Positions 37,312 through 56,180 of a DNA stretch of 64,000 nt are shown here, piece after piece. The stretch is from a virus (Duplodnaviria; Heunggongvirae; Uroviricota; Caudoviricetes): the IMG/VR virus record IMGVR_UViG_3300007169_000056. One strand, written 5' to 3'. The position numbers and the translations under genes were made by a program. Every line of letters begins with the position of its first letter. Position 1 is the stretch's first letter. The notes under the pieces were generated by a model. It saw only the letters and a program-made list of their open reading frames with translations, made no database searches and was not told the DNA's origin.

Positions 37312-37527
37312 ATGAACATCATTAGCATCATCAATACGAATACAGTTAAAGACATTCCTGATGCCCTGCGGGCTTTGGCTAATATCGTGGAAAAGGATAT
37401 TGCTATTCAAGGTTGCAGAGCAAATTCTATAGGAATGTTCGGGGAAATTGATAGTGTATCAGGCGATTTTGATTATCAAATTCAACAAACTAATTTCACA
37501 AGCCTTTCTGAGTCGGTGATAAACTAA
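37312..37527 (+). CDS. small hypothetical protein
   Basis: start trimmed to the Met after the -10 element. Confidence 0.35.
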   Translation: MNIISIINTNTVKDIPDALRALANIVEKDIAIQGCRANSIGMFGEIDSVSGDFDYQIQQTNFTSLSESVIN

Positions 37528-37531
37528 AAAT

Positions 37532-37852: not shown

Positions 37853-37877
37853 CTCTCTATAATCTTCTTGGTAAAGT
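37849..37877 (+). promoter_or_regulatory. repeated promoter element copy 3 (TTGACTCTCTATAATCTTCTTGGTAAAGT)
   Basis: TTGACT, 17 nt, TAAAGT; ATG 6 nt after the -10. Confidence 0.45.
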
Positions 37878-37883
37878 AACTCT

Positions 37884-38372: not shown

Positions 38373-38375
38373 TTT

Positions 38376-38522
38376 ATGGTTGAAACCGATATCACAAAAC
38401 GTTGGGAGCAAGGCATTCGTCATCATCCAAAAAGCATTGAAATCTTAAAAGCTATCATGAACAATGGATGGAAGACGAAAGAAATTCTAAAAACAAAACA
38501 TGTTGTGATTGACGTTCTATAA
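38376..38522 (+). CDS. small hypothetical protein (48 aa)
   Basis: hand-translated MVETDITKRWEQGIRHHPKSIEILK...; stop lies inside promoter copy 4. Confidence 0.3.
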   Translation: MVETDITKRWEQGIRHHPKSIEILKAIMNNGWKTKEILKTKHVVIDVL

Positions 38523-38537
38523 ACATCGTGGTAGGAT
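38509..38537 (+). promoter_or_regulatory. repeated promoter element copy 4 (TTGACGTTCTATAAACATCGTGGTAGGAT)
   Basis: 26 of 28 nt identical to copy 1; ATG 9 nt after the -10. Confidence 0.5.
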
Positions 38538-38546
38538 ATTGAAACT

Positions 38547-38861
38547 ATGAAGATCAAAACTTTTGTCATCGTTGTTGCTTCCATCGTCACTCTCACCGGA
38601 TGTCGTGGCCGCAACGATCCACAAACAAAGGCAAATAATTGGGTCAATGTCAATAATCCTGAATTTGTTGTGGATACTCCCAAGGGTAAACTGTTCCGAA
38701 TTTGGATTGATATGGGTGCAGGAAACCACCCGGATCGTATTTACTTTTTTGAAAATGCCACCAACAATACTATCAGTGTCAACAAAACTATCAGTAACGG
38801 AAAAAGCTCACATACCGAGACGATTGTGGTGATCGATGGTGTTGAGTATATTCGTAAGTAA
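38547..38861 (+). CDS. small lipoprotein
   Basis: signal peptide plus lipobox LTGCRG. Confidence 0.4.
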   Translation: MKIKTFVIVVASIVTLTGCRGRNDPQTKANNWVNVNNPEFVVDTPKGKLFRIWIDMGAGNHPDRIYFFENATNNTISVNKTISNGKSSHTETIVVIDGVEYIRK

Positions 38862-38866
38862 ACAAT

Positions 38867-39373
38867 ATGAGTGAAGAATCCAAAGAGTTCCGAAATGTTC
38901 ATTCCGCCAAGTTTTATCTCAACATTTACGTTGAACGTGGGCGTGATCTACGAGTAATTCGCAATATTCCAATTGATGAGATCGGACGTTTTGATGTGTG
39001 GCAATGTGTTTTTGAGAAGGAGCCAGAAGCATATCGGGAGCTTTGTGTCAAAGAATGGTATAATGATAACCTTAAATCGTCAGACAACGATGATGTAAAC
39101 AAATTCCGGTTGGAGTTCTCTGTTTACAGACTTATTCAACTTGAAGAATGGAACACTTCATTTACCGTGCAAGATGCGATTAAGATCATTTTTGATTGTT
39201 ATGGAACAGAGTGTTTGCCATTTCTCATTGAAAAAGCAGAAAAATGTGTGGAATCTCGAAAAGAAATTGTCAAGCCATATTACAAGCCCGACAACGAATG
39301 GGTTGGGTTTGCAGAAAGAGTATTAGAAAAATTGAAACAGTATGAACGACACTACACAGAAAAGGACCATTGA
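38867..39373 (+). CDS. hypothetical protein
   Basis: ORF only. Confidence 0.4.
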   Translation: MSEESKEFRNVHSAKFYLNIYVERGRDLRVIRNIPIDEIGRFDVWQCVFEKEPEAYRELCVKEWYNDNLKSSDNDDVNKFRLEFSVYRLIQLEEWNTSFTVQDAIKIIFDCYGTECLPFLIEKAEKCVESRKEIVKPYYKPDNEWVGFAERVLEKLKQYERHYTEKDH

Positions 39374-39485
39374 CGATGTTTGTGGTCAACCGAAAGGATC
39401 ATTTCAGAAGTTTTTACAAACGATTGAACTTGAAAACAAGCAATCCGAAGAACGAAGATCAGAAAGAATCAGAAAGCATATCAAT

Positions 39486-40268
39486 ATGAAGAATTTGTCA
39501 AACGAAATTGTGCAGTGGATCAAGGATTATGCCACCAAAAACAACCGTAAGTCGCTGGTCGTGGGTGTATCGGGTGGTGTGGACAGTGCGCTTGTGAGCA
39601 CTCTGTGTGCCATGACAGGTCTACCTACGCATTGTGTAGTGATGCCGTGTCAGACCAAGACAGATCAAACGGATCGTGGTAACAAGCACATTGAATGGCT
39701 TCGCAGCAAATTTGATAATGTTTACTACGAGTGTGTAGACCTTACCAACACGTTTGAAGCGTTTCAACGTGTGACCACCACTTGCTATCACAATAAATTG
39801 GGCTATGCCAACAGCAAGAGTCGGCTTCGCATGGTAACTTTGTATCAGATTGCCACGGCTACTAACGGTTTGGTTGTTGGAACCGGCAACAAGGTTGAAG
39901 ATTTTGGTGTGGGTTTCTTTACCAAATATGGTGACGGTGGTGTGGACATCAGCCCTATTGGAGATCTGCTCAAGAGCGAAGTGCGAACCATGTGTCGTGC
40001 TTTGGGAGTTCTTCCAGAACTTAGTGAAGCTGTTCCTACCGATGGACTGTGGGACGATACTCGTACCGACGAGGATCAAATTGGTGCTACGTATGACGAA
40101 TTGGAATGGGCTATGGAGTTTTTTGAATCAAACGATCCAGGCGACATTCATTTGTGGGGAGGCGAAGTGACCACTCGTCAGCGTGAAGTTCTTGCCATTT
40201 ACGACAAGTGGCACAATGCTGGTGCTCACAAATTGGCCCCAATTCCAGTCTTTGTGCGAAATGCGTAA
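39486..40268 (+). CDS. nadE: NH3-dependent NAD+ synthetase
   Basis: PP-loop SGGVDSALVSTLC; FFTKYGDGGVDISPIGDLLKSEV and the C-terminal region align with NadE; maximal ORF starts at 39342 but 39486 gives the canonical length. Confidence 0.75.
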   Translation: MKNLSNEIVQWIKDYATKNNRKSLVVGVSGGVDSALVSTLCAMTGLPTHCVVMPCQTKTDQTDRGNKHIEWLRSKFDNVYYECVDLTNTFEAFQRVTTTCYHNKLGYANSKSRLRMVTLYQIATATNGLVVGTGNKVEDFGVGFFTKYGDGGVDISPIGDLLKSEVRTMCRALGVLPELSEAVPTDGLWDDTRTDEDQIGATYDELEWAMEFFESNDPGDIHLWGGEVTTRQREVLAIYDKWHNAGAHKLAPIPVFVRNA

Positions 40269-40272
40269 ATCG

Positions 40273-40461
40273 ATGAAACAAAAGAACGTCAAGAAAATCA
40301 ATGAGATTGTGGGCAATTTGACGGAGTTGGAAACCGCTATTGCCCAACATTCTTATTATGATGGACCCGCTACCAAGACCAAACAACTGGAGTGGTTCCG
40401 CAAACTACAAGAAATTACTGCAAAGTTAAACAGAATTTATCGTGACGAAACCACGTTGTGA
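40273..40461 (+). CDS. small hypothetical protein
   Basis: start trimmed to the Met after the nadE stop. Confidence 0.3.
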   Translation: MKQKNVKKINEIVGNLTELETAIAQHSYYDGPATKTKQLEWFRKLQEITAKLNRIYRDETTL

Positions 40462-40487
40462 TTTCTATGTCTACTCAGTGATGTTGT

Positions 40488-40703
40488 ATGAGAACAATAT
40501 TCAATAAGGGAAAACAAATCTACAAATTTTTTCCAAATAAACAAAAATCCACTATGAACGAAAAAGACAACGCTGTCGATCAAAACAAAAAGAAATGGAT
40601 CAATCAGGACGTGAAGTTTTCGGTAAACTTTTCACTTGAATTTCCACGGTGGTTCTGGATGTTGATTTCTGGATTGATGTTGGCATTGATTGTTTTATGG
40701 TAA
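40488..40703 (+). CDS. small membrane protein
   Basis: C-terminal TM helix. Confidence 0.3.
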   Translation: MRTIFNKGKQIYKFFPNKQKSTMNEKDNAVDQNKKKWINQDVKFSVNFSLEFPRWFWMLISGLMLALIVLW

Positions 40704-40781
40704 AACGTTGACATTGGTTACTAACCGTGATACCATATGTAAACGGTATGAGTAAATCGTAGAAACAACAAATAAACAAAT

Positions 40782-41237
40782 ATGAATAATTCCGTTACAA
40801 ACAATATTCCACAAGAAACCATCAACAGTGTACTTGTTGACATCCTCAAGGGTGCCAAGGACGCAGGTAGTGAAATCTATGGTGCCAGCAAAACTGGCAT
40901 CATCAAGGCAGTGGATTTTGCTCAAGAGCAAGCTCCGTTGGTTGTGCAAGAGTTTTTGACATGGAAATTTGCACAAGCCACCATTTGGACTGTTATTAGT
41001 GTGATCGGATTGATTGTGTTGGGATATTGCATCAAGAAATGTATTAATTGGCTTGAAGAAAGCGGGGGTGGATCGATGGTTGGCATACTTTTTGGTGTAA
41101 TTTTATTTGTAGTGGTGATGTTTGTGGGATTGATTCCCAACGTTGAACAAATGGTCAAGGTCAAGGTGGCTCCCCGAGTATTCATCATCGAATGGGTTAG
41201 TGATCAGGTCAAACCTACAAATCATCACAACCGATAA
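40782..41237 (+). CDS. membrane protein (2-3 TM helices)
   Basis: hydrophobic segments. Confidence 0.4.
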   Translation: MNNSVTNNIPQETINSVLVDILKGAKDAGSEIYGASKTGIIKAVDFAQEQAPLVVQEFLTWKFAQATIWTVISVIGLIVLGYCIKKCINWLEESGGGSMVGILFGVILFVVVMFVGLIPNVEQMVKVKVAPRVFIIEWVSDQVKPTNHHNR

Positions 41238-41242
41238 AATTT

Positions 41243-41500
41243 ATGAAAGCATCTGAAGCACGTACTTTGAGTGAAAAAGCATGTAATTCATCGTTGAGTA
41301 TATATTTGAAAAATGTATATGAACATATCAGTAAACAAGCGAGTCTGGGACTTTCTACGGTATCAGTTAAATCTCCAAACAGTGTAATTATTACATCTGT
41401 AATGGAACAACTTCGTAAAGATGGATATCAAGTTAAACGAAAAAATGGATATGATCATCGAGACTGCGACAGTTGGGACTATTTGAATATTTCTTGGTAA
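41243..41500 (+). CDS. small hypothetical protein
   Basis: ORF only. Confidence 0.35.
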   Translation: MKASEARTLSEKACNSSLSIYLKNVYEHISKQASLGLSTVSVKSPNSVIITSVMEQLRKDGYQVKRKNGYDHRDCDSWDYLNISW

Positions 41501-41503
41501 ACT

Positions 41504-42067
41504 ATGAACTACGAAAAAGAAAAGTTGATTGAACGTGCAGAAATTCTTGGCGTATACGATATTGCATCAGTAGTTATTGCAGATCCACGTTTTGAATTGT
41601 GGAGTGGGTCTAGCAAACCTGAACAACACCACTATGGTAAGGGTGGTCTACTTAGACATACGCATGAAGTGGTTGAGTTGTGTATTACCAATTGTAGTCT
41701 GTTGCAACTAAATATCGATCAGGTAGAGTTGTATTTGAGTGCATTGTTTCATGATTGTGGTAAGATGTGGGATTATGAACCAGTTGATTCGATTATGAAT
41801 TCTTGGCGTAGCACCGAACACAAACGATTGATTCATCACATCAGTCGTAGTGCATTGGTTTGGAATAGTGCGTGTACATTTCGCCGGCTTAAGTATGGTA
41901 ATTATGCGGATAGTGTCACACACAACATTTTGTCCCACCATGGACATCGTGAATGGGGTAGTCCTGTGATGCCAAAGACGAAGGCAGCATGGTTGTTGCA
42001 TTTGTGTGATGGTATTAGTGCTAGAATGAATGACGCAGACAAATGTGATTTTGTAAAGAAAGTATGA
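41504..42067 (+). CDS. HD-domain phosphohydrolase
   Basis: HTHEVVE and LFHDCGK (H...HD) metal-binding motifs. Confidence 0.5.
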   Translation: MNYEKEKLIERAEILGVYDIASVVIADPRFELWSGSSKPEQHHYGKGGLLRHTHEVVELCITNCSLLQLNIDQVELYLSALFHDCGKMWDYEPVDSIMNSWRSTEHKRLIHHISRSALVWNSACTFRRLKYGNYADSVTHNILSHHGHREWGSPVMPKTKAAWLLHLCDGISARMNDADKCDFVKKV

Positions 42068-42459
42068 CTAAAGACTATTATAATTCGTTGATGAATCCTG
42101 GTTTTTTATCAAGCGAAAAAAGTAAAAAAGATGAGATTGAATCGATAAAAAAGGAAAATATAGAGTTAAAGGCAAAGTTGACATTGTTGGAAACACTATA
42201 TAATGATTTGCAAAAAAGGATCAATATGAAAGAAACGCAAATAGAAGATATAAATGAATTGACCCACGAAGATGGTAATCCCCTTGTTGGATGTAGAATG
42301 CACGTAGGACCTGTAGGATCAAAACATGGATGGTTTTTTACTGTATCAAAAGAACCAACTAGTACAAAGGAATACGTTGAAATATTGGAAGAATTGATTA
42401 GGATGGCAAAAGCTCCCGATGTTGAAGATACAGAGGTATTGGGTGATCGTTCTTTGTAA
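42064..42459 (+). CDS. coiled-coil hypothetical protein
   Basis: ORF only. Confidence 0.4.
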   Translation: MTKDYYNSLMNPGFLSSEKSKKDEIESIKKENIELKAKLTLLETLYNDLQKRINMKETQIEDINELTHEDGNPLVGCRMHVGPVGSKHGWFFTVSKEPTSTKEYVEILEELIRMAKAPDVEDTEVLGDRSL

Positions 42460-42462
42460 CAT

Positions 42463-43038
42463 ATGAACGACTATATTTGTCATAGTGGTGGATGTGAAGG
42501 TGCTGACATGGGTTGGGAGGAAATTGGGTATCACTATAATGTCAAAACCATTGCATATAGTTTTTACAATCATCGACAGCACGGTCGAAACCAAAAGATC
42601 TTGACCTCTGAAGAACTTCAAGAAGGATATTCTGCTGCAAGAATTGCTAGTAGATCCATCGGCAGACCTTTTGATACAATTCAATATCCATACATCAAAA
42701 ATCTATTGGCACGAAACTGGTTTCAAGTCAAGAACAGTGAGGCAATTTTTGCAATTGCCAAAAGTTTTTTGACCAATACAATTGTTGAAGGAGGAACTGG
42801 TTGGGCCGTTCAAATGGCAATTGATTGTGACAAACCGGTATATGTGTGGGTTCCCGATGCATCGTGCTTTACTGGAGGATATTGGTGTAGATATAAGCCG
42901 GTTGTGGGATTTGAAGGCATGCGTGGTGAGATTCCGAAGTTAACCAAGAATTTTGCTGGTATTGGAACGAGAGATTTGACCGACGCTGGTTTAGCAGCAA
43001 TTGCAGAAGTGTATAAAAATACGTTTGGGGATATATAA
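42463..43038 (+). CDS. SLOG-superfamily Rossmann-like protein (YpsA/DprA/LOG-like)
   Basis: N-terminal glycine-rich HSGGCEGADMGW and second GGTGWAVQ motif, as in SLOG/LOG nucleotide-binding domains. Confidence 0.35.
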   Translation: MNDYICHSGGCEGADMGWEEIGYHYNVKTIAYSFYNHRQHGRNQKILTSEELQEGYSAARIASRSIGRPFDTIQYPYIKNLLARNWFQVKNSEAIFAIAKSFLTNTIVEGGTGWAVQMAIDCDKPVYVWVPDASCFTGGYWCRYKPVVGFEGMRGEIPKLTKNFAGIGTRDLTDAGLAAIAEVYKNTFGDI

Positions 43039-43042
43039 CAAT

Positions 43043-43360
43043 ATGAATACAAAGACAAGTTACATCAAAGACGAATCGTATTATGCTGAAGCTGAATCGA
43101 TGCAAGATGGTTGGGGTGATACATTGCGTTGGATTGATGTTTTGAAAGACAAAATTCAATATAAGAAAGAAATCACTCTCAAAGAATTTTGTTATAGTTT
43201 ATATGGCGATGGTTGGTGTAGTCATACGTGGGATGCGTTCAAGATGTATTGTGAAGAAGAATTGAAGTATTCACGTAAGCGGTTGGTTTATGATGCTTGG
43301 AAAGGTGTGTTTGACAAGTGGGTAAACACAGAGTATGATCGTAGTAAATTCTATCGATGA
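43043..43360 (+). CDS. hypothetical protein
   Basis: start trimmed to MNTKTSY. Confidence 0.4.
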   Translation: MNTKTSYIKDESYYAEAESMQDGWGDTLRWIDVLKDKIQYKKEITLKEFCYSLYGDGWCSHTWDAFKMYCEEELKYSRKRLVYDAWKGVFDKWVNTEYDRSKFYR

Positions 43361-43361
43361 T

Positions 43362-43571
43362 ATGACCAAACCTATTGGAGCAACACAAAAACAACTTGAC
43401 GACAACGATATTGAGTGGGTATTGTGCGGAAGTTACAATATTGGTATGAATAAAGGTCCAGAGAAATGGGCATTACGTCACAGCACTGAATATGAATGGG
43501 CTAAGGAACGAACAATGTTGTTGCAAGAAATTGCTAATTTGAAACGAATCAATAAAAGTCTACAAAATTAA
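43362..43571 (+). CDS. small protein carrying repeat module A (KPIGATQKQLDDNDIEWVLCG...ERTMLLQEIANLKR)
   Basis: cgaTGAtATGa junction; paralogous to the C-terminus of the 50815 gene. Confidence 0.4.
   Translation: MTKPIGATQKQLDDNDIEWVLCGSYNIGMNKGPEKWALRHSTEYEWAKERTMLLQEIANLKRINKSLQN
43368..43556 (+). repeat. direct repeat module A (left copy) bracketing the small-gene array
   Basis: shares the 36-nt identical core gaacgaacaatgttgttgcaagaaattgctaatttg (43506-43541) with 51262-51297. Confidence 0.7.
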
Positions 43572-43575
43572 ATAT

Positions 43576-43842
43576 ATGATAACCACACACGAACTAATAA
43601 AAGGTACAAGCGAAGAAATTCTACAACATATAACATCCAAACCAACATATAGTCACAGAGATAGTTTTGACATACAAACACAACTGGACACTATTGGGTT
43701 GGAAAAACAAGGCATGGTGTTTTATCTCGAACAACCAGATGCATCAAATTTTGTTTTTAAAAATGTATATGTTCATATCATTGATGGTGTTCGAAGAAAA
43801 CATATGGAAGATGTTTTAATTGATAAATATACTGTAAAATAA
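43576..43842 (+). CDS. small hypothetical protein
   Basis: array ORF. Confidence 0.4.
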   Translation: MITTHELIKGTSEEILQHITSKPTYSHRDSFDIQTQLDTIGLEKQGMVFYLEQPDASNFVFKNVYVHIIDGVRRKHMEDVLIDKYTVK

Positions 43843-43843
43843 T

Positions 43844-44113
43844 ATGAGAAAATACCCAAAAGAATGTAAATCTCCTGATCCTGATTTTGACTGGACCAAA
43901 ATCAAATGGACAAAATACAAGATTGTTGTGCCAACCAAAGCCGATGAAAAAGAACTAAGAGATGCGTTTAGACATATTCACGATTCAGATATTGATACAG
44001 ATTATATCGCCGTCAATCAATTGGCACATGAATATCTTGAAGACGATGGTTGTTGTAGTATCATTGTAGATAAAGAATTATATGAAGCACTAAATAAAAA
44101 AGAAAATAAATAA
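43844..44113 (+). CDS. small acidic hypothetical protein
   Basis: array ORF. Confidence 0.4.
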   Translation: MRKYPKECKSPDPDFDWTKIKWTKYKIVVPTKADEKELRDAFRHIHDSDIDTDYIAVNQLAHEYLEDDGCCSIIVDKELYEALNKKENK

Positions 44114-44114
44114 T

Positions 44115-44681
44115 ATGAACCGCCGAAAATTTATTACATCAACCGCACGTGCATTGCCATCAGTGACAGTGCTTGGTGCAATATCAACTCAACTTACCAA
44201 GACTTATAGAAGTCCAAAAAGCGTCTTTACAAATGAAGAATTAACTGAGTGGTGTGAAAAGAATGGTGGTCACTACGCTCAAGACAATGAATTGGTATAT
44301 GCTTATTATCAGACAAGTGATAGGGAATATGACCCAAAAAGTCCAAATGCGTATAAAGATCCATATAAGTCATTTAGACATTTGATTTTTCATATTCCAA
44401 CAGAATGTGATAAATACGAAGCACTCAATCGGTGGTTGGTATTTTATAGCCACAAGTATGGCAGTTATAGATTCATCATCAAAGACATCTATTATCCAGA
44501 TTATGTGATTGAAAATACCAAAATGATGCCTTTGATTGCGTCAACCAGAGAATATCCCAACGGTAAATCGCATGGATTTGGTTCTCCGATTTTTGATATC
44601 AAATCACACAAATACATTGTTCCAACATTTGAAGAACTGGATGAACGAACACTCAATTTTACAGGATTCAAATCTGTATGA
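44115..44681 (+). CDS. hypothetical protein, paralog B (FTNEELTEWCEKNGGHYAQDNEL)
   Basis: shares motifs with the 49518 gene. Confidence 0.45.
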   Translation: MNRRKFITSTARALPSVTVLGAISTQLTKTYRSPKSVFTNEELTEWCEKNGGHYAQDNELVYAYYQTSDREYDPKSPNAYKDPYKSFRHLIFHIPTECDKYEALNRWLVFYSHKYGSYRFIIKDIYYPDYVIENTKMMPLIASTREYPNGKSHGFGSPIFDIKSHKYIVPTFEELDERTLNFTGFKSV

Positions 44682-44863
44682 ACGAACGAGACATTCTACG
44701 TATAGCAAAACAAAGTGCAAAAAAGTTGGGATTACCTTCTCGATCTAAACGAATTTTACTAGAATATTTTGATGATTTTTTATGGTTTTTTGTTGCAACT
44801 TATATACGAATAGTATTTACCGTTGTACCAAAGAGATATCGTCATCTGTTTTTTAACCCATGA
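44678..44863 (+). CDS. small hypothetical protein
   Basis: array ORF. Confidence 0.3.
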   Translation: MNERDILRIAKQSAKKLGLPSRSKRILLEYFDDFLWFFVATYIRIVFTVVPKRYRHLFFNP

Positions 44864-45111
44864 ATATAATTTACGTTACATATGCAGTAGGCCCTCATTT
44901 GCAAGAGCTTGATTTGATTGAGCGTTTGTGCAAGTATGAGGGATACAGTGTTGCATTGATTTATCCGGAGAATCCGGATTTCAAACGATACTACAAGGGA
45001 GGACATCCAGCTATTCTGTTTTACGAGGAAGTTGACAAAGATCCCACTGTGTTGTATGGATTTTGGCAATTGGCAGAGTTTATGTTGAAACATGGAATGA
45101 TACGTTGTTGA
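44860..45111 (+). CDS. small hypothetical protein
   Basis: array ORF. Confidence 0.35.
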   Translation: MNIIYVTYAVGPHLQELDLIERLCKYEGYSVALIYPENPDFKRYYKGGHPAILFYEEVDKDPTVLYGFWQLAEFMLKHGMIRC

Positions 45112-45116
45112 CTACT

Positions 45117-45299
45117 ATGAATAGTATAACATCTGATATAGAAAAAATCATTAAAGATGGAAAAGGTTGGGGATCAGCATGGTATAGTCATGATGACAAG
45201 GTTCAATTGGATGGCACATTCTCAATTCAAGTATTGAGAGATATTGCCGATTTGGTTGAACGATGTATAAAGGAAGCTTCCAATAAACAGAAGGATTGA
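45117..45299 (+). CDS. small hypothetical protein
   Basis: start trimmed; ends in the AAGGATTGATATG junction. Confidence 0.35.
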   Translation: MNSITSDIEKIIKDGKGWGSAWYSHDDKVQLDGTFSIQVLRDIADLVERCIKEASNKQKD

Positions 45300-45300
45300 T

Positions 45301-45513
45301 ATGAAAAAACCAACCATCGTCACGACTGAACATCAAAGAAAATGGAACAAAGAAACTGTGGGAGTCACTCATATTGTTAGATATGATACTGAGTCAGAAC
45401 GCAGTTTTGTTACCAAAATAGATAAAGATACTGGCGAAGAACATTTTGATCATTGGGAGACACCAGATTTCCGACAACTAATCAAAGAAAAATACAATAT
45501 TGATGTCAAATAA
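45301..45513 (+). CDS. small hypothetical protein
   Basis: bounded by conserved junctions. Confidence 0.4.
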   Translation: MKKPTIVTTEHQRKWNKETVGVTHIVRYDTESERSFVTKIDKDTGEEHFDHWETPDFRQLIKEKYNIDVK

Positions 45514-45521
45514 GGATTGAT

Positions 45522-45767
45522 ATGAATGAAGATTACAATGTGCTTGGATTTGTGGCATTTATAAAGAATGGTGAACGCCACTATGGATGTCGTGGAAGAG
45601 GAAAAGACTATGATGATTTTTATGGTAGATTTCTAAATGGAAAATCATACAAATGCACTTCAGAAGATTTTCCTTGGGATTATTTTATATTCACTGATAT
45701 TAATGATGAACAACTCTTCTTGAAAGAATATTCATCAAAAATAGACTTTATAACTTCCGAGGATTGA
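45522..45767 (+). CDS. small hypothetical protein
   Basis: bounded by conserved junctions. Confidence 0.4.
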   Translation: MNEDYNVLGFVAFIKNGERHYGCRGRGKDYDDFYGRFLNGKSYKCTSEDFPWDYFIFTDINDEQLFLKEYSSKIDFITSED

Positions 45768-45768
45768 T

Positions 45769-46254
45769 ATGAATGATTCTAAACTACCAGATTGCATTGA
45801 CGATCAAGGACATTATTTTAAGACGTGTTCTAGGTGTGCATATATGGTATGTAGACGGTGCAACGCTCAATCTTATGATCATACATTAGGTATGTGTTCA
45901 ACCTATGGAGATTTTAGTGGAACAACAGCGGAATATGATAGATATTGTGATAGATGTGAACGATTATTGCAAAGGGGACGACCAACAGTGTATTCTCACT
46001 CATTCAAGTGTTATGAAGATTGGGAACAACATAGAATAGTTACCGGTGATATAATATGTAGACAATGTGACGGCAATGGATATTATATGACATATGGGAA
46101 TGAACCACGCAAATGTTGTAGTTGTGAAGGAACTGGCAAGTTTCCATCTCCAAGCCGTATTAAATACTTAGAGAGAATAAAAAAAGAAAAAAGTGAATAT
46201 CCTAAAGAAATGACTTCGTGGGATCTTTTCCTACAGTTATTCAAACTAAAATAA
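45769..46254 (+). CDS. Cys-rich zinc-finger protein
   Basis: multiple CxxC pairs (CSRCAYMVCRRC, CDRCE, CRQCDGNG, CCSCEGTG). Confidence 0.4.
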   Translation: MNDSKLPDCIDDQGHYFKTCSRCAYMVCRRCNAQSYDHTLGMCSTYGDFSGTTAEYDRYCDRCERLLQRGRPTVYSHSFKCYEDWEQHRIVTGDIICRQCDGNGYYMTYGNEPRKCCSCEGTGKFPSPSRIKYLERIKKEKSEYPKEMTSWDLFLQLFKLK

Positions 46255-46259
46255 TTGAT

Positions 46260-46739
46260 ATGACACAACCAGATACGGCGGATTTCTATTTGACCGCAAT
46301 AAAAAACAACAAAGAACGAAAAGAAAAAGAAAAGCACGAACAAAAAGAGCGTAATAGAACATATAAATCAACGCATCATCCTTGTGGTTGTAGAAATGAT
46401 GCGCCTCATTCTATACAATGTATTGAATATGATGTTGATAAAGGATTCAAAAACAGATTTATTGAACGTCATCCTAACTGGTATGATTCAGATGAATATT
46501 TTACATTGAATTTCAATACCACTGATGAATTGTTGCAATGTGAATATGTTGCTAGATATAAAAAAGACACTGATGCTGACAAATTTTACCAATATTCACT
46601 ATCAATAGACAAATATAGCCCGCCAATGTTGATGGCTGAGTATAATAATGGAACCAGTTGGTGGTGTCTTGGTAAACTACGAACAACCGATGGATTAAAT
46701 TTGCCAAAATGGGAACCTGTATACAAAAAGAAGGATTGA
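46260..46739 (+). CDS. hypothetical protein
   Basis: start trimmed to the junction ATG. Confidence 0.4.
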   Translation: MTQPDTADFYLTAIKNNKERKEKEKHEQKERNRTYKSTHHPCGCRNDAPHSIQCIEYDVDKGFKNRFIERHPNWYDSDEYFTLNFNTTDELLQCEYVARYKKDTDADKFYQYSLSIDKYSPPMLMAEYNNGTSWWCLGKLRTTDGLNLPKWEPVYKKKD

Positions 46740-46740
46740 T

Positions 46741-46980
46741 ATGAAAATACAAAATATAAACACGTCGTGGAAAAATCAAAATGCAATAGATGATGATATG
46801 TGTAATTATGCTATTCAGATTAGCAAACCAACCGGAAAAATAGGCTTTTATGAAAACGTAACACTGAAAGATAAATATCTCAATATAGAAACAGCAGTGC
46901 AAAAAGCCACCGAAGTTCAAAACGTATTAAAAGCAATAGATTCGTACATCCAAGTTTCAGTGGTAGAAGGATTGATATGA
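46741..46980 (+). CDS. small hypothetical protein
   Basis: bounded by conserved junctions. Confidence 0.4.
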   Translation: MKIQNINTSWKNQNAIDDDMCNYAIQISKPTGKIGFYENVTLKDKYLNIETAVQKATEVQNVLKAIDSYIQVSVVEGLI

Positions 46981-47252
46981 AATACAAAACATTTGCGGAT
47001 GCTATGAATGATGGATGGTCATTGGTGCCTATAGACAAAGAAATTGCACAAATAGGAACTTATTATTCATATTGGAAAAAGGATGGCAAAGTATTGTGTG
47101 AGGACGAGTTGATTGAAAATTGGACCATGAACAATTCACACCAACAACTAACTACTATTTCTGAAAAATGGAAGCACATATTTCCGCCCAATGAACCGTC
47201 TGGTCCGATGAAGCCAATTCTCATTGAAGGACAACAGAAAAAATTGATATGA
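46977..47252 (+). CDS. small hypothetical protein
   Basis: ATGA start/stop overlap junctions. Confidence 0.4.
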   Translation: MKYKTFADAMNDGWSLVPIDKEIAQIGTYYSYWKKDGKVLCEDELIENWTMNNSHQQLTTISEKWKHIFPPNEPSGPMKPILIEGQQKKLI

Positions 47253-47503
47253 ATGAAAAACTAATAAACGTTGGTGATTGTTGTGTGGCTATCAAGGCTA
47301 TCAATTTAGATAAATCATCTCATGATGAAATCGATGCCTATGGTAAAGCTAATAACTTGACAATAGTATATGCTGACTGGCATCCAAATCCTGAATATCG
47401 TATATCAAAAACTGGTAGTTTTTTGAGTCAAAATAAAAAATATCCAAGCGGACTAATTTTAGTGGATAATAAAGGAGAACCACATCCATACAAAAAAGAT
47501 TGA
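47249..47503 (+). CDS. small hypothetical protein
   Basis: bounded by conserved junctions. Confidence 0.4.
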   Translation: MNEKLINVGDCCVAIKAINLDKSSHDEIDAYGKANNLTIVYADWHPNPEYRISKTGSFLSQNKKYPSGLILVDNKGEPHPYKKD

Positions 47504-47504
47504 T

Positions 47505-47690
47505 ATGACCCGTAAAGAAGAACTAGAATATAGACTTAAACAAATTGGTAATAGAATAATTGAGCATGGACGAGATGCTGCATTAAAAGGAATATCCATT
47601 GATGATAATCCGTGGAAAGGATTTTCACATGAGTTCCATATTTGGCGAAACGGTTGGATATTTGAAACCAATTTGAAAAAAGAGGATTAA
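47505..47690 (+). CDS. small hypothetical protein
   Basis: bounded by conserved junctions. Confidence 0.4.
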   Translation: MTRKEELEYRLKQIGNRIIEHGRDAALKGISIDDNPWKGFSHEFHIWRNGWIFETNLKKED

Positions 47691-47691
47691 T

Positions 47692-48174
47692 ATGAAAACA
47701 ATACCCATAAAAATTGGAGGATCTACACTGGTAGGTTATGTTGCTGACAGTTATCCAATCGACGGTGGCAATTGTTTTGATTTGATTGATACCGATGGTA
47801 GTAGACATCGTGTTGTAAACTTTGGATATGAGAATCTAAAAGAGTGGATGAAACGAACTGGACAGACTGATATTATGGTTCGTTGTATTCCAAAATCAGA
47901 TAAATTGTGGGAGATTTGTGATGAACGTATACCCAAAGAGTGGTATAGCAGTGAATATTGCACAGTTTGCACTCCTATTAGGATGTTGCCGTTTGAGCAG
48001 CGTAAACAATATGTCAAAAACAAGAAGTTTACAAAGACAAAAGATGGAGATTTAATAATTTCTACGACTCTTGTTCCACAAGCCAGAAAATTGAATTTCA
48101 AATGGGCGACTGAAATTGAACAAAATATGGTATACGCCCATTATATACCAATAATCAAAAACAAAATGATATGA
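47692..48174 (+). CDS. hypothetical protein
   Basis: bounded by conserved junctions. Confidence 0.4.
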   Translation: MKTIPIKIGGSTLVGYVADSYPIDGGNCFDLIDTDGSRHRVVNFGYENLKEWMKRTGQTDIMVRCIPKSDKLWEICDERIPKEWYSSEYCTVCTPIRMLPFEQRKQYVKNKKFTKTKDGDLIISTTLVPQARKLNFKWATEIEQNMVYAHYIPIIKNKMI

Positions 48175-48353
48175 GCCGCAAGATTTTAAAGAACTATTGT
48201 TTTGAATTAGACAATTTTGAACGAGGTATAAACAAACGAATGCAAATTATTGTATCCGATTACAATTTGAAAAATGCTAAAAACCAAGTAAAAAAAATGT
48301 TGGGTAAGATTGTAGCAGATAAAATGACATTAGAGTTTTCAGAAAAGGCTTGA
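48171..48353 (+). CDS. small hypothetical protein
   Basis: bounded by conserved junctions. Confidence 0.35.
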   Translation: MSRKILKNYCFELDNFERGINKRMQIIVSDYNLKNAKNQVKKMLGKIVADKMTLEFSEKA

Positions 48354-48354
48354 T

Positions 48355-48573
48355 ATGACTTATGAAGATAAATTAAATGAGTTGAAATTAAAAGGTTATG
48401 ATAGTTCAAATATTAATAATGTGATTGAATACAAGTGCAGCAATCCAGAGTGTGATGTTGTTAATTATGGAACGACATTTTCTTTTTATGCATATACATT
48501 GTATGGCAAACCAAAAGGTGGATGCCGCGTATGTAAATCACCAATAGAAATTACAGTAATTAATGAAAATTGA
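48355..48573 (+). CDS. small zinc-ribbon protein
   Basis: CSNPEC ... CRVCKSP. Confidence 0.4.
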   Translation: MTYEDKLNELKLKGYDSSNINNVIEYKCSNPECDVVNYGTTFSFYAYTLYGKPKGGCRVCKSPIEITVINEN

Positions 48574-48574
48574 T

Positions 48575-48847
48575 ATGTCAATAGTAAATTATATGATATA
48601 CGGTGGGTATAAAGAAATACCACGGGAAGAATATTATGAGTGGTTCAAAAACGCCTCTATCATAAGAGAAGAAAGTTTTGTAATTTCAAATTTTTGCGGA
48701 CCCCACGAATTTTCCACTACTATCAGTAAAAATGGAATGACTTATGAGTTGGGATGGGGATGGCATGTAGAAAATGGTAAAACCATAGACTGGTATGGAG
48801 TAAGAAAACTACACACAGATCATAATCAAAATGGAAACGGTATATGA
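48575..48847 (+). CDS. small hypothetical protein
   Basis: start trimmed to the junction ATG. Confidence 0.4.
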   Translation: MSIVNYMIYGGYKEIPREEYYEWFKNASIIREESFVISNFCGPHEFSTTISKNGMTYELGWGWHVENGKTIDWYGVRKLHTDHNQNGNGI

Positions 48848-49260
48848 CCACAAAAACACATATAGTATGTCCTGCGTGCAATAAACCCACCGGAGAGATT
48901 GATCATTTTGTAGATTTTAACAAGTCAGTTAAAACACGATGGTATTGTGATAGTTGTATGACGGACTTGGAATATAATAAAGCAATCATATTAAATAATT
49001 TTACAGAAGAACAATATAGAGAATTGTTTGAGGGTCCGGACTATGATTTGAAACTCATACGAGCGGCAAAAAAATATAAACTTAGAATGGATAAAGAAGT
49101 GTTAACTGAGTATCTTACGGAACAATTAATTCATGCGAGTTCCGGAGAATATATTGGGGAGGGTTATCACGGAGGGTTATCATGTGAAGAATGGAGACGT
49201 AGAAGAATTTGTTTGGAACAATGTTTAGCCGAATTAAATAGTATAAATGAAGAGAATTAA
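48844..49260 (+). CDS. zinc-finger hypothetical protein
   Basis: CPACNKP ... CDSCMTD. Confidence 0.4.
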   Translation: MTTKTHIVCPACNKPTGEIDHFVDFNKSVKTRWYCDSCMTDLEYNKAIILNNFTEEQYRELFEGPDYDLKLIRAAKKYKLRMDKEVLTEYLTEQLIHASSGEYIGEGYHGGLSCEEWRRRRICLEQCLAELNSINEEN

Positions 49261-49261
49261 T

Positions 49262-49513
49262 ATGACCAAAACACAACTAAAAAAAATCAAAGAACTTGAC
49301 GCATTTCTAAAACAAAGAAAGATGGAATTGCGAGGAAGTGATATTATTATGGGGTTTAATATGCAGACGTATGGAACTGAAAAGCATGTTCAACTAAATC
49401 TAGATATAGGATATATCAGAGGCAGCGACTCTGATATTCAAGAACTAAACAAAATACCAAAAATAAAAGAACATTATCATATTGACAAAAATGGAAAATT
49501 AAAATCATATTAA
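49262..49513 (+). CDS. small hypothetical protein
   Basis: start trimmed to the junction ATG. Confidence 0.4.
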   Translation: MTKTQLKKIKELDAFLKQRKMELRGSDIIMGFNMQTYGTEKHVQLNLDIGYIRGSDSDIQELNKIPKIKEHYHIDKNGKLKSY

Positions 49514-49517
49514 TGAG

Positions 49518-49949
49518 ATGATAATACCCAATACTTCATGTAGAAGTGCTACGAGTTTGTTCACAAATGAAGAATTGACTGTCTGGTGCAAAAATAACGG
49601 TGGACATTATGCACAAGAAAATGAACTAAACAGTGTGTTTTTTGAACAACAATATGAACAATGTGTTGAGGTTTATAATACACTTGATCCAGATTTTATC
49701 CGAAAATATGATCATCTAAATGATTTTCTTGATATTCATAGAACCAATATCGCTAGATACAATCGTTATATCACAAGAAAGAATAACAACATTCGGTTTG
49801 ATATATTTGACGGCGATCCATTTATTTCTGGATTGGATTTAATATATAATTCCAACAGATTTGTGATCAAAGACGTGTATACAAAACCAAGTATTATTTC
49901 ATTTCGATATGTAATAGATGGTAGAAGATCCGACAAACAAAAAGATTGA
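49518..49949 (+). CDS. hypothetical protein, paralog B-prime (FTNEELTVWCKNNGGHYAQENEL)
   Basis: shares motifs with the 44115 gene. Confidence 0.4.
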   Translation: MIIPNTSCRSATSLFTNEELTVWCKNNGGHYAQENELNSVFFEQQYEQCVEVYNTLDPDFIRKYDHLNDFLDIHRTNIARYNRYITRKNNNIRFDIFDGDPFISGLDLIYNSNRFVIKDVYTKPSIISFRYVIDGRRSDKQKD

Positions 49950-49950
49950 T

Positions 49951-50142
49951 ATGACTGAAAAAGGATATACATTAAATGAGATGTTGGAAAACAGCAGAAT
50001 ACTTGCGAGTGAAATCAAAAAGGATAATTTTCCAATAGAAGGCACCACTGAAAAAGATTATATGATAGTTGGTAACATTGCTGTTTACACACCGTATATT
50101 CCATTGTATACTACACCTTTAATAACAGATAAGAAGGATTGA
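49951..50142 (+). CDS. small hypothetical protein
   Basis: bounded by conserved junctions. Confidence 0.4.
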   Translation: MTEKGYTLNEMLENSRILASEIKKDNFPIEGTTEKDYMIVGNIAVYTPYIPLYTTPLITDKKD

Positions 50143-50143
50143 T

Positions 50144-50344
50144 ATGAAGATCAAAGTAATTAAGCAATACGATCCCATCAAATTTACAGAGGCGGTAAAT
50201 AATCATTTAACTGATGGATGGCAATTATTTGGAGAACCAAAAATTGAAACAGTTGTAGAACAAAAGATGTGGGATGGTGATCCATATAGCGTAACCCATA
50301 CTGTATATCATCAAATAGTAAAAACCGGAAAAAATGAAAACTAA
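50144..50344 (+). CDS. small hypothetical protein
   Basis: bounded by conserved junctions. Confidence 0.4.
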   Translation: MKIKVIKQYDPIKFTEAVNNHLTDGWQLFGEPKIETVVEQKMWDGDPYSVTHTVYHQIVKTGKNEN

Positions 50345-50552
50345 GTATCTATCAGTATATCCAGAATGGCATTGTAGAAAAGCTGGAGGATTGTTTTTTG
50401 GATTTCGATTAGACTTTCCATGTAGTATTTACGACGCTGATGCTTTTGCGTCAAATCACACCTATACTGATATTAGATTGACATTAGGACTAATTGCGTT
50501 TAGTGTCAAAGTACATATCAAATACAACTATAAGAAAACGTTACCTCAATGA
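50334..50552 (+). CDS. small hypothetical protein
   Basis: ORF only. Confidence 0.35.
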   Translation: MKTKYLSVYPEWHCRKAGGLFFGFRLDFPCSIYDADAFASNHTYTDIRLTLGLIAFSVKVHIKYNYKKTLPQ

Positions 50553-50818
50553 ATAAAAATATAACTATAATTAAGAAACTAAAAGACGATAAATATCAAA
50601 ATGATCATTCTCAGGTCGATGAAGAAACCAGAAATATTTATAAATGGCCCAAATGGTATTGGGGATTAGGATCCGATGGAGAATTATATTTTAAAGGACA
50701 AATCTCCGGATATTCGTATCCAAACTGGACAAAAAAATCGGGGGTAGAGTTGCCACTTTCAACAGAGGAAATTTGCAGGCTAAGTGATTTTATACGTTTT
50801 TATCTAAACTTGATATGA
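50549..50818 (+). CDS. small hypothetical protein
   Basis: ends in a TTGATATGA junction. Confidence 0.4.
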   Translation: MNKNITIIKKLKDDKYQNDHSQVDEETRNIYKWPKWYWGLGSDGELYFKGQISGYSYPNWTKKSGVELPLSTEEICRLSDFIRFYLNLI

Positions 50819-51333
50819 AAGCGAACACACGACCGATTGTTAAACCGTGGGTAGTAAGCAGTTTAAAAAAATCTATAGACGAATATTTGTATAGTATGGC
50901 AGAAAAGGAAAATCGATGTTTACACGATTCGTGTTTAGAGTGTAATGGAACAGGAACAAACAAATATAACGGACAGCCGTGTGTCCATATGATAAGTTGT
51001 AGATGTAGTAAATGTTCTAGCGGGGCACAAATAGAACCATGGATTATGAAAAAAGTTGACGAATCTTTACGAAACAGATTTCCGGATAGAGAAAGTCGAA
51101 CATTGCCTTTTGAAAAAAATATGAATAAACCCATCGGTGCAACACAAAAACAGTTGGATGACAACAATATCGAATGGGTATTATGCGGCAACTATGGACA
51201 TAGAGATACCCAAGAACCAAAATGGGCATTGCGTCATAGCAGTGAATATGACTGGGCGAAAGAACGAACAATGTTGTTGCAAGAAATTGCTAATTTGCGT
51301 AGACAGATAACACGATTGGAAGGTTTGACATGA
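50815..51333 (+). CDS. Cys-rich protein with C-terminal repeat module A-prime
   Basis: CLHDSCLECNGTG, CRCSKCS; C-terminus KPIGATQKQLDDNNIEWVLCG...ERTMLLQEIANLRR. Confidence 0.45.
   Translation: MKANTRPIVKPWVVSSLKKSIDEYLYSMAEKENRCLHDSCLECNGTGTNKYNGQPCVHMISCRCSKCSSGAQIEPWIMKKVDESLRNRFPDRESRTLPFEKNMNKPIGATQKQLDDNNIEWVLCGNYGHRDTQEPKWALRHSSEYDWAKERTMLLQEIANLRRQITRLEGLT
51127..51310 (+). repeat. direct repeat module A-prime (right copy)
   Basis: 36-nt identical core at 51262-51297 matching 43506-43541. Confidence 0.7.
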
Positions 51334-51488
51334 TAGAAATTGACTATCAACCGACGAACAGACAAAAGGTTCAAAAAACCACAAAACACAAGTTTTGGTG
51401 TAAATGTGACCGGAATATTGTTGGTGAAATAGGCAAATGTCCCGTATGTGGTCGATACAATAGAAAAAACAGAAAACGGTTGAGATAA
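51330..51488 (+). CDS. small zinc-ribbon protein (52 aa)
   Basis: hand-translated MIEIDYQPTNRQKVQKTTKHKFWCKCDRNIVGEIGKCPVCGRYNRKNRKRLR. Confidence 0.35.
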   Translation: MIEIDYQPTNRQKVQKTTKHKFWCKCDRNIVGEIGKCPVCGRYNRKNRKRLR

Positions 51489-51845: not shown

Positions 51846-52361
51846 ATGAGTAATTTATTAAAACATGCTGAACGTGAACTGTCTCTCATTGGTTATGACG
51901 GTACAGATGAATATGATAATACAGCAAAAAAGGCTATATTAGAACTAATAGAAACATTTGCCAAACAAGGTCACAGCGGATTTAGCGCTGGTTACGTGGT
52001 AAGTCTTTTCAACAAACTGGCAAGATATGAGACATTATCTCCATTGACTGGTAATGATGATGAATGGAATGAAATACTCGACAATCAACCTCAACACGGA
52101 GTTTTGTTTCAAAATAATAGAAACAGTGCTGTTTTTAAAACAGACGGTGGATGTTATTATATTGATGCTATTGTGTGGATTGACGAAACCGGATGTAGCT
52201 TCACCAATGGAAGAAGCCGAGGATATATCAAGTCGTTTCCATTCACACCCAAAACGTTTTATGTACATGTAGATGCAAATGATGTCGTCATAGACACCGA
52301 AGAACATCAGAAAGCTCTCGACTATTATCACCATGAACAAAACGTTGGAAAAGTTTTGTGA
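51846..52361 (+). CDS. hypothetical protein
   Basis: ORF only. Confidence 0.4.
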   Translation: MSNLLKHAERELSLIGYDGTDEYDNTAKKAILELIETFAKQGHSGFSAGYVVSLFNKLARYETLSPLTGNDDEWNEILDNQPQHGVLFQNNRNSAVFKTDGGCYYIDAIVWIDETGCSFTNGRSRGYIKSFPFTPKTFYVHVDANDVVIDTEEHQKALDYYHHEQNVGKVL

Positions 52362-52608: not shown

Positions 52609-52879
52609 AGAAAAACTAACGTTAACTAAAGAACAAGCCCTAGATATTATCGGGGGTGATAACAAAGACTTTGTTGAAATCCAAAACGAAATCGTGGAAC
52701 ACAAACGGTGGAGTGTGGTACACGAAATCGTCGTTAAACGAAAGTCTGACGGAAAATATTTCATGGACACTTATCAAACTGGTGCAACTGAAAGCCAAGA
52801 CGAATGGCCCTATGAATATACCGATCCGGATTTTACAGAAGTCTTTCCAGTAACTAAAACATACATCGATTATGAATAA
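52592..52879 (+). CDS. small hypothetical protein
   Basis: ORF only. Confidence 0.35.
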   Translation: MSNPTREKLTLTKEQALDIIGGDNKDFVEIQNEIVEHKRWSVVHEIVVKRKSDGKYFMDTYQTGATESQDEWPYEYTDPDFTEVFPVTKTYIDYE

Positions 52880-53297
52880 CCGAAACACAATCAGTGAATG
52901 TCGTGTCTATGACGAGAAGTATCGGTGTTGGGACGACACGCCGTTGATGATTTATCCAAACCAACAGATTGTCAAACAAGGTCGTATCATTCAGTGGTAT
53001 ACAGGTGTTCTTGACAAACATGGTAAGAAAATCTATGAAGGTGATGTAGTCAAAACCATTGATAGTGGTATTGGCGTATTGTTTGGCGCACCAAAATACA
53101 CCCGTGGAGTAATCACATGGCTTCGTGAATCATTTTGTATATGTCAAAGTTACGTGGGCGGTAACGAACTAAGCAATTATGTTTTTTGTGATTGCTGTGG
53201 CTGTGACTTGATTGTCATTGGCAATATCTTTGACAATCCAGAATTGTTGGAAGACGATCCTGTTGTCAAACAATCGCGAGAAACTAAAAAAGATTGA
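52872..53297 (+). CDS. YopX-family protein
   Basis: C-terminal IGNIFDNPELLE resembles the YopX IGNIyeNPELL signature. Confidence 0.5.
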   Translation: MNNRNTISECRVYDEKYRCWDDTPLMIYPNQQIVKQGRIIQWYTGVLDKHGKKIYEGDVVKTIDSGIGVLFGAPKYTRGVITWLRESFCICQSYVGGNELSNYVFCDCCGCDLIVIGNIFDNPELLEDDPVVKQSRETKKD

Positions 53298-56004: not shown

Positions 56005-56180
56005 ACATATGAACATTGTCAAAAAAGTGTGGGATACCGTCAAACTTGGCATTGTCGAAATGTACGAATGTATTACTGCCAGTAGTTTTGGAATCATTCT
56101 TTTTTGGCTAGTGATTTTTCTGTTGATTTTTGGAAATTCCAGCTGTAAACTTGAGTTGTCGATTCATTCTACTCCATAAT

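Follow-up and report, generated by a model that had tools for sequence, protein, structure and literature searches.

In lambdoid and other tailed phages the joints of genome mosaics lie at gene boundaries, the 'boundary sequences' of the literature of the Hendrix, Hatfull and Casjens era. Another mode of plasticity is known from the hyperplastic regions of the T4-type phages RB49 and phi1, where PeSL cassettes of ~100 bp flank ORFans and mediate insertion, excision and the formation of mini-circles (Arbiol et al. 2010, PMC2839356). Insertion of such a mini-circle is modelled to yield a cassette flanked by direct repeats of ~100 nt (PMC2839356). Also, phage NAD+ reconstitution pathways have been reported to counter NAD-depleting defence (bioRxiv 10.1101/2024.02.11.579819). 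Here we analyse a locus on a 64,000-nt stretch of tailed-phage DNA (IMG/VR record IMGVR_UViG_3300007169_000056; hereafter the window, to which all coordinates refer unless a relative is named), in which an array of small genes lies between two copies of a direct repeat, gene A and the module A′, that share a perfectly identical 36-mer. An earlier reading of this DNA from its letters only (the sequence-only reading) had taken the repeat as a sign of gene conversion or recent recombination and as the possible boundary of a hypervariable island. We conclude instead, with a probability of about three in four, that A and A′ are old paralogs of an orphan family, that A belongs to exchangeable cargo and A′ to the backbone, that the 36-mer is a shared allele, and that genes are turned over at gene junctions. 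In what follows, L-numbers denote loci or contigs of relatives, and w-numbers denote window genes named by their start.

Results

The direct repeat is present where the sequence-only reading had placed it, and both 36-mer positions are exact. The 36-mer GAACGAACAATGTTGTTGCAAGAAATTGCTAATTTG occurs exactly twice on the plus strand (Table 1), with a spacing of 7,756 nt between the copies, and a second copy was not obtained by chance in shuffled sequences even when 3 mismatches were allowed. On aligning the two copies, the similarity was found to extend over ~43358-43547 and 51118-51303, with 44 mismatches over 183 aligned bases of the module (76% identity); identity rises to 92% over the 3′ 78 nt and is 81% over the 5′ 70 nt. 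The peptides share 48 of 63 residues (76%, E=9e-34). Only a module of ~62 aa is common to A and A′, and the flanks are unrelated. It was also borne out that A is a stand-alone gene of 69 aa and that A′ forms the C-terminal third of a 172-aa open reading frame (ORF) with a Cys-rich N-domain matching phrog_17149.

A run of 36 identical nucleotides is not due to chance in this pair, as it has P=0.00065 when mismatches are shuffled uniformly and P=0.003 when site rates derived from the family are used. Likewise, among the identical codons with synonymous options, 16 of 42 differ between A and A′ overall as against 0 of 11 consecutive ones in the core. The exact 36-mer is also found in at least five other phage contigs (L001, L007, L008, L047 and L059), and with 1-3 mismatches in many others. 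The A module as such is carried by 43 metagenome loci of the Joint Genome Institute (JGI) and by 2 IMG/VR contigs. In its 3′ segment A is 96% identical to L007 (with a run of 61 nt), 95% to L048, which is its closest ortholog (86%), and 88% to A′, while the 3′ segment of A′ is 96% identical to L008 and 94% to L047. Since the 36-mer is present verbatim in other phages and A is closer to foreign alleles, the run most probably reflects a clade-wide allele of the most conserved segment of the family rather than a demonstrable conversion between A and A′. It may be noted that the core codons vary freely across the family (L53 TTG/CTT, L54 CTA/TTG, A58 GCT/GCC, L60 TTG/CTA), the third-position diversity being 0.36 inside the 36-mer and 0.35 outside. 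A nucleotide-level element in the 36-mer, such as an RNA or a binding site, was ruled out because this synonymous diversity equals that of the rest of the module and the Rfam search came back empty.

Gene conversion should leave co-resident copies closer to each other than to orthologs elsewhere, which A and A′ are not. By max-chi2, A was found to be a mosaic with L005 (own type) and L007 (donor) as parents (P=0.0002), and L001 and L034 were also mosaics (P<0.0002). With A′ as donor, P was 0.09 or 0.23 when L005 or L004 served as own-type parent, and 0.068 with L048. Intragenic recombination in the A-module family is strongly supported by these sequence mosaics and, acting within the conserved segment, would explain why A and A′ share the 36-mer allele. 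Of the earlier proposal of 'ongoing gene conversion or recent recombination', recombination within the family is retained (max-chi2 P<=0.0002), and conversion between A and A′ is not demonstrated (P=0.07-0.23 with A′ as donor).

The fate of the interval in close relatives was decisive. Two contigs, L058 and L059, come from the same run, overlap exactly by 25 nt and have 92-99.6% nucleotide identity to the window, so that together they represent a near-isogenic strain. This strain tracks the window to 43,372, then carries a 139-aa gene, a diverged B gene (Table 1) and four other genes, rejoins at 48,568 (99.2%), and continues through B′, A′, the Zn-ribbon region and the Tad3 gene to 54,768. From B′ through A′ to Tad3 it is conserved at 98-99%, and its single A module is A′. 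Another relative, L056 (76-94% identity), tracks the window from 31,756 to 43,365, has four unrelated genes and rejoins at 49,250, the replaced stretch extending to 49,261. The position of A is empty of A in both L056 and L058. Judged from these alignments, A is the first gene of a strain-specific cargo of 5.2-5.9 kb, and A′ is part of the conserved backbone. The proposed hypervariable island is thus real in that the block is replaced in both relatives with its left edge at the start codon of A; A′ is not its boundary, as the right breakpoints fall at 48,567 and 49,261. Replacements between the A repeats, which the sequence-only reading had suggested looking for in related phages, were found, but none is bounded by both A modules, and among 60+ loci there is no relative with two A copies and none with an A/A′ hybrid such as a deletion would leave. 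Also, the suggestion that the repeats serve as substrates for deletion or amplification is not supported, as all four mapped breakpoints of the two replacements lie at start codons and none lies inside an A module.

Two of the three distinct junction sites (43,365 and 49,262) carry a stereotyped junction (..ATTGATATGA) or a degenerate form of it, and the joint at 48,567 has the w48563 start codon only. On the left, near-identity among the window, L056, L058 and L019 extends through ..CGATGATATG and is lost thereafter; on the right, the joints are ATT(G/A)ATATGACC (49,262) and the w48563 start. The breakpoint sequences read ..GATGATATG and ..ATT[GA]ATATGA. The junction motif AAGGATTGATATGA combines a Shine-Dalgarno sequence, a TGA stop and an ATG start, and makes many upstream proteins end in ..KKD. 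It occurs 19 times in the window as against 1.6 expected, and its density is 1.16 per kb in the interval as against 0.12 per kb in the loci of relatives (~10-fold), where it often stands directly before the ATG of the A-module gene. This junction may act as recombination microhomology. Since the joints lie at gene boundaries and A itself lies inside the replaced block, the A/A′ repeat would be a by-product of cargo acquisition and not the engine of variability.

Relatives carry further traces of such exchange. In L019 a gene of the A′ subtype follows the ortholog of w43043, and a 102-nt direct repeat (98% identical, at 2187-2288 and 2514-2615 of that contig, 327 nt apart) flanks its A-module gene. 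The repeat is itself a deletion scar, in which the 5′ end of a w44860-like gene runs directly into the 3′ end of a w45301-like one, and the arrangement of repeat, gene and repeat looks like a recent cassette insertion or duplication. Another ORF of L019 fuses the 5′ end of B to the 3′ end of w47249 at an 11-nt microhomology. In L055 (2,271 nt) the order is w43576, a 60-aa gene, w43844, a B-like gene, a 69-aa gene and w43043, which is circularly permuted with respect to the window (w43043, A, w43576, w43844, B). The homology of L055 had seemed to end exactly at the end of the 36-mer; this was rejected, as the alignment placed the solid boundary at the start codon of w43576. The trio of A, Zn-ribbon and B-like genes recurs in L001, L042 and L043. 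In L048 the A-type gene stands after '..CGLKHI*' and 'MGWSNLSFMRLETYIS', and in L059 a different gene stands behind the same leader, which is further evidence of cassette swaps at the start codon. Also, the A module of P0002, L007 and L009 carries a fused N-terminal domain of 60 aa, and this domain is part of a separate gene in L059 (the comparison used 579-866 and 821-1219 of L059 and 60-145 of L048).

The A-module family was then delimited. The ATG of A at 43362 is where most homologs begin, although the JGI gene caller took the upstream ATG at 43335 (78 aa). Searches for homologs of the module gave 25 clusters out of 5.8 billion and 24 representatives out of 1.84 billion; at 90% identity the cluster of A consists of A alone and that of A′ has 6 members. 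A′ orthologs are present at 91-98.5% nucleotide identity in the independent contigs L047, L057 and L059 (in L047 and L057 the locus is confirmed at 91-93%), and given this conservation the fused A′ ORF is judged to be real. The match to phrog_17149 covers residues 18-68 of this ORF. The A module itself has no match in Pfam, PHROG or PADLOC, no homolog in 50,697 GenBank phage records (there only residues 18-86 of A′ match, to hypothetical proteins) and none in the genomes of 185,579 bacterial and archaeal species. Megablast of the region against GenBank phages gave no match, and no relative of the left-flank gene was found in IMG/VR. Its members are restricted to a lineage of T4-like phages that are uncultured and come from fresh water.

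Family members have conserved codons 1-22 and 36-61, which enclose a loop of discrete types (YNIGMNK, YGHRDTQEPK, YSHRGSYEPT, YSHRSIEKPV and YSHRNVYEPM) and are followed, after QEIANL(K/R)R, by at least five unrelated tail types. Loop and tail types are found in nearly all combinations. The YNIGMNK loop of A is similar to the pattern of the remote homologs, and the A′ module has the YGHRDTQEPK loop with tail type 1 'RRQITRLEGLT'. As the two copies are of different loop subtypes, they represent old distinct lineages and not recent duplicates. An AlphaFold model of A (38-sequence alignment, predicted local distance difference test score of 92.3) has a short helix followed by a beta-hairpin and then by a long C-terminal helix starting at the 36-mer, with the variable residues 23-35 at the hairpin tip on a conserved scaffold. 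No fold match was found for the model, and no described family corresponds to A by sequence or fold; the module is thus, as modelled, an orphan family with a confidently predicted, new-looking fold.

Table 1. Features of the A-A′ region, with positions in the 64,000-nt window.
Feature	Position	Strand	Remarks
Sigma-70-like site TTGACA-17-TATGAT (predicted)	43311..43339	+	11/12 match; best in 19-kb scan; 22 nt upstream of the ATG of A
Left mosaic joint '..CGATGATATGA'	43352..43365	+	window, L056, L058 and L019 alike to ATG, then four different genes
Gene A	43362..43571	+	69 aa, stand-alone; YNIGMNK hairpin-loop subtype; truncated tail type 2 'KRINKSLQN'
Strain-specific block (A + 17 genes)	43365..48567	+	~1.8 kb of other genes instead in L058+L059
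36-mer copy 1	43506..43541	+	encodes ERTMLLQEIANL, start of C-terminal coiled-coil-like helix
Tightly packed small genes (25; 60-188 aa)	43576..50818	+	GC 0.33; only two weak PHROG matches
Gene B	44115..44681	+	188 aa; twin-arginine-like N-terminal signal (MNRRKFITSTARALPSVTVLGAIS); paralog of B′
AAGGATTGATATGA copies (<=2 mismatches), 45.3-51.3 kb	45291-45304, 45512, 45759, 46250, 46731, 46967, 47239, 47495, 47682, 48345, 49941, 50134, 51320	+	13 copies
Gene B′	49518..49949	+	143 aa; 32% aa identical to B; part of conserved backbone
Gene A′	50815..51333	+	172-aa fusion: Cys-rich N-domain (CxxCxGxG-like, phrog_17149), linker, A module
A module within A′	51121..51303	+	ancestral start codon ATG kept at 51121-51123, as judged from alignments
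36-mer copy 2	51262..51297	+	same 36-mer retained in L047, L001, L007, L008
Small Zn-ribbon gene	51330..51488	+	follows A-module genes in many relatives

A and A′ do flank the array, as had been read, and to this may be added the 25 genes between them and a nested second pair: an all-versus-all comparison of the plus-strand ORFs of the window showed B/B′ as the only other paralog pair in the region, in the order A-B...B′-A′. The first ~190 nt of B form a block conserved at 78-90% nucleotide identity across relatives, and the C-terminal portions are either variable or joined to other genes. The B family is also present in L001, L019, L042, L043, L055 and L059, and another protein of L019 (209-667) also begins with a signal of the twin-arginine type. 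No recombinase or nuclease was found among the 25 interval proteins, and no integrase, transposase or homing nuclease among A, A′, these 25 and the flanking genes (PHROG for all, Pfam and PADLOC for a subset). In these searches there is thus no sign of a mobile element or an integron-like cassette array.

On fitting two change points to the G+C content (GC), the best fit was obtained at 43,525 and 50,650 (0.400, 0.330 and 0.381 for the three segments), with a sharp left boundary and a broad right one, for which any position in 50.4-52.6 kb was about as likely. The small-gene regions of relatives, in which PHROG matches are likewise nearly absent, have a median GC of 0.327 and their enzyme-gene stretches 0.38-0.41, so that an island of foreign origin was ruled out as the source of the low GC. 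As relatives share the low GC and conserved backbone takes up the right third of the interval, the low-GC block is the small-gene compartment of this phage group and not a unit bounded by the repeats.

The sigma-70-like site before A is conserved in L056 and L019, and no terminator-like site was found near either A module or beside the joints. Elsewhere in the window there is a family of sigma-70-like promoters with extended -10 (TTGACT-N14-15-GTGGTA.., plus strand) at 6339, 19742, 24905, 33957, 35070, 36833, 37275, 37849, 38509, 40708 and 58320, with no copy between 40.7 and 58.3 kb. As the array from A to A′ is without an internal promoter of this TTGACT type, it is probably one long transcription unit.

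A Tad3 homolog of 171 aa lies 0.5 kb downstream of A′ (51846-52361, plus strand; Pfam PF25185 'Type I Thoeris inhibitor Tad3', E=6.9e-38, 129.5 bits with a cutoff of 27), and Tad3 homologs adjoin or are near A-module genes in L015/16, L022, L023, L032, L040, L045 and L059. Genes for NAD+ synthesis or salvage are present on the plus strand at 33785-34744, 35166-36785, 39342-40268 and 56130-57161; the set comprises an NMNAT-like cytidyltransferase with Nudix, NAMPT, NAD synthetase and a ribose-phosphate pyrophosphokinase-like (PRPP-synthetase-like) protein. Also in this neighbourhood is a YopX-family protein (52872-53297, Pfam E=1.4e-13), which has 2-4 tandem paralogs in L015, L019, L038 and L046.

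The contigs of relatives carry T4-like Pfam marks (rIIB, RNA ligase, Gp23, Y10B and a gp21-like protease), by which the lineage is classed as T4-like. The interval is a typical T4-type hyperplastic region: a cluster of small orphan genes, in a T4-like lineage, that is variable between close strains. Ten window proteins tested, from w42463 to A′, were found exactly on 4 JGI contigs, the longest of 289,645 nt, and the 78-aa call of A on these contigs spans the junction of w43043 and A. These exact matches argue against misassembly and point to a very large phage genome as the source; the assembly is sound.

A few other features of the window may be recorded. A 538-aa minus-strand ORF (11819-13435) has 18-nt periodic repeats at 12702-13217, which suggests a collagen-like Gly-X-Y protein, perhaps a fibre. 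A G-rich element, GGGGTGGGCAGCG[CT]AAATAA, is present at 15-43, 573-601 and 2368-2396 (plus strand), in a region of strongly positive GC skew (0.40-0.47). Four large ORFs (478, 487, 357 and 342 aa) at 2365-8827 (plus strand) have no PHROG match at E<=1e-5. The 342-aa protein has one distant tblastn match among GenBank phages (30% identity, an unannotated human faecal phage contig), and its orthologs adjoin A-module genes on the opposite strand in L009, L011 and L018. In L002, a 769-aa ATPase-like protein (10311-12620 of that contig, plus strand) has an apparent intein (..NRCLSGDTKIL.. to ..GIFVHNS..), seen by eye only.

Discussion

The results are best explained if both A and A′ descend from old paralogs within an orphan family of small proteins. 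A′ is fused to a Cys-rich N-domain and resides in the conserved backbone of a hyperplastic region, beside the Zn-ribbon and Tad3 genes. A is the first gene of a cassette block of 5.2-5.9 kb, in a place where close relatives have unrelated genes. The conserved segment is flanked by a variable loop on one side and a variable tail on the other, and recombination within it has reshuffled loops and tails among phages time and again. Gene turnover as such takes place by cassette exchange at gene boundaries, at AAGGATTGATATGA junctions and start codons, as shown by the four breakpoints of the two replacements and by the scars in L019.

It is possible, though we would give it only a minor chance, that two copies are kept by selection because the A family consists of anti-defence or host-takeover proteins whose loops bind targets, an explanation that is compatible with that of old paralogs and junctional turnover. 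The position of the variable residues at the hairpin tip on a conserved scaffold, the discrete and reshuffled loop types, and the Tad3 homologs beside or near A-module genes with NAD-synthesis genes nearby would all fit. Against this, the family has no homology to a known anti-defence protein or PADLOC model and no fold match, adjacency is weak evidence where all genes are small accessory ones, and most relatives carry one copy. A bolder form of the idea, which we regard as rather improbable, is that the A proteins form a new class of small, dimeric proteins directed at the host, possibly for anti-defence, with an architecture suited to modular diversification: the conserved 5′ and 3′ segments, the 36-mer among them, would serve as recombination handles for swapping discrete loop cassettes and C-terminal tails between phages. 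If so, the two copies would give an internal donor for such swaps and would allow the 7.76-kb array to be excised as a PeSL-like circle.

Several observations weigh against the explanation by old paralogs and junctional turnover. Only three genomes of close relatives could be read across the region, and it is solely on grounds of parsimony that the block is taken as gained or lost. For the A/A′ pair, a run of 36 identical nucleotides is statistically unusual (P=0.003). A agrees with A′ at two synonymous core sites (148 and 174) where L048 differs, and at several 5′ sites, so that a short A′-to-A conversion tract is possible, although neither needed nor demonstrated. The GC change points lie near A and A′, and a Peptidase_S77-like gene stands after w43043 in both L056 and L058. 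Part of this evidence would favour the alternative that the repeats are kept alike by ongoing conversion and are the substrates and bounds of an island that would be lost, amplified or exchanged as a whole: the run is longer than would be expected, A matches A′ and not L048 at the sites just named (borderline in a triplet test, P=0.068), the replaced block begins at A on its left, and GC changes near both repeats. In E. coli the minimal processing segment reported for RecA-dependent recombination is ~23-27 bp, and 36 nt is above it. An in-frame deletion of 7,756 nt between the 36-mers is possible in principle; none is seen among relatives. We nevertheless consider this alternative unlikely. 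The 36-mer is not private to the pair, the core of A being closer to L007 and L048 than to A′; the right breakpoints are away from A′, which belongs to backbone conserved at 98-99%; the breakpoints are at start codons with A itself within the replaced cargo; and there is neither a two-copy relative nor a hybrid, A remaining the sole member of its 90% cluster.

A recent segmental or tandem duplication in this genome, giving A/A′ and possibly B/B′ with later divergence, is very improbable. The presence of two pairs of directly oriented paralogs in a stretch of 8 kb would suggest it, but the homology is limited to the 62-aa module with unrelated flanks, the loop subtypes differ, and both copies have closer foreign relatives (L048 at 86% for A, L047 and L008 for A′). 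Also, the order A-B...B′-A′ is not collinear, B/B′ are 32% identical as against 76% for A/A′, and the near-isogenic strain is without A altogether. Histories of a single event, whether a tandem duplication or a Campbell-type insertion of A-Zn-B units, were tried and rejected, as the orders in the window, L019, L055 and L001/L042 could not be related simply. Least credible of all is an assembly artefact in which two strains were joined at the 36-mer to give a false second copy, for although the window comes from a metagenome and one GC change point (43,525) lies within the 36-mer, the ten proteins are exact on 4 contigs including the 78-aa call of A, continuity through A′ is seen independently in L047, L057 and L059, the A module is joined to its tail in L048 too, and a chimeric switch at the repeat could not alone create 7.7 kb of unique sequence between the copies.

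The case shows the limits of what may be inferred from a perfect short repeat in diverged paralogs, as it was the comparison with relatives that revealed a lineage-wide allele and joints at gene junctions. New here are an orphan family with a cassette-like variable loop, and a translational-coupling junction that coincides with cassette boundaries. The mode of phage genome plasticity is known already, and current views are not overturned. Given the neighbourhood of Tad3 and NAD+ synthesis genes, the surrounding ORFans are reasonable candidates for counter-defence screens.

Comparison with known systems

With concerted evolution between paralogs, the locus has in common two copies in direct orientation with a perfect 36-nt tract in diverged DNA; it differs in that the copies are no closer to each other than to orthologs elsewhere. 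The NAD+ gene set of the window resembles the NAD+ reconstitution pathway. In comparison with the anti-defence neighbourhoods of Tad3 and of this pathway, the A family shows no detectable relationship with any described anti-defence protein, and its role would be inferred from position. The likeness to T4-type hyperplastic regions is closer, as the region is a dense array of small ORFans in which near-identical strains differ by insertion, deletion and replacement at intergenic joints. As for PeSLs, the L019 gene flanked by direct repeats of ~100 nt is what insertion of a mini-circle would produce, and a conserved sigma-70-like site is present at the left joint of the window. The A/A′ repeat is, however, a protein-domain coding sequence and not a promoter plus stem-loop of ~100 bp, and the promoter-like site lies outside the repeat. 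The window joints are Shine-Dalgarno/stop/start junctions of 10-14 nt with no terminator beside them; also, PeSL-type indels map to repeated elements, whereas the joints at 43,365, 48,567 and 49,261 map to start codons. As in the boundary joints of lambdoid-type phages, homology here starts and stops at start codons and gene ends, and short junction sequences recur. The difference is that here a single stereotyped translational-coupling motif is involved, enriched ~10-fold in one array of 6 kb.

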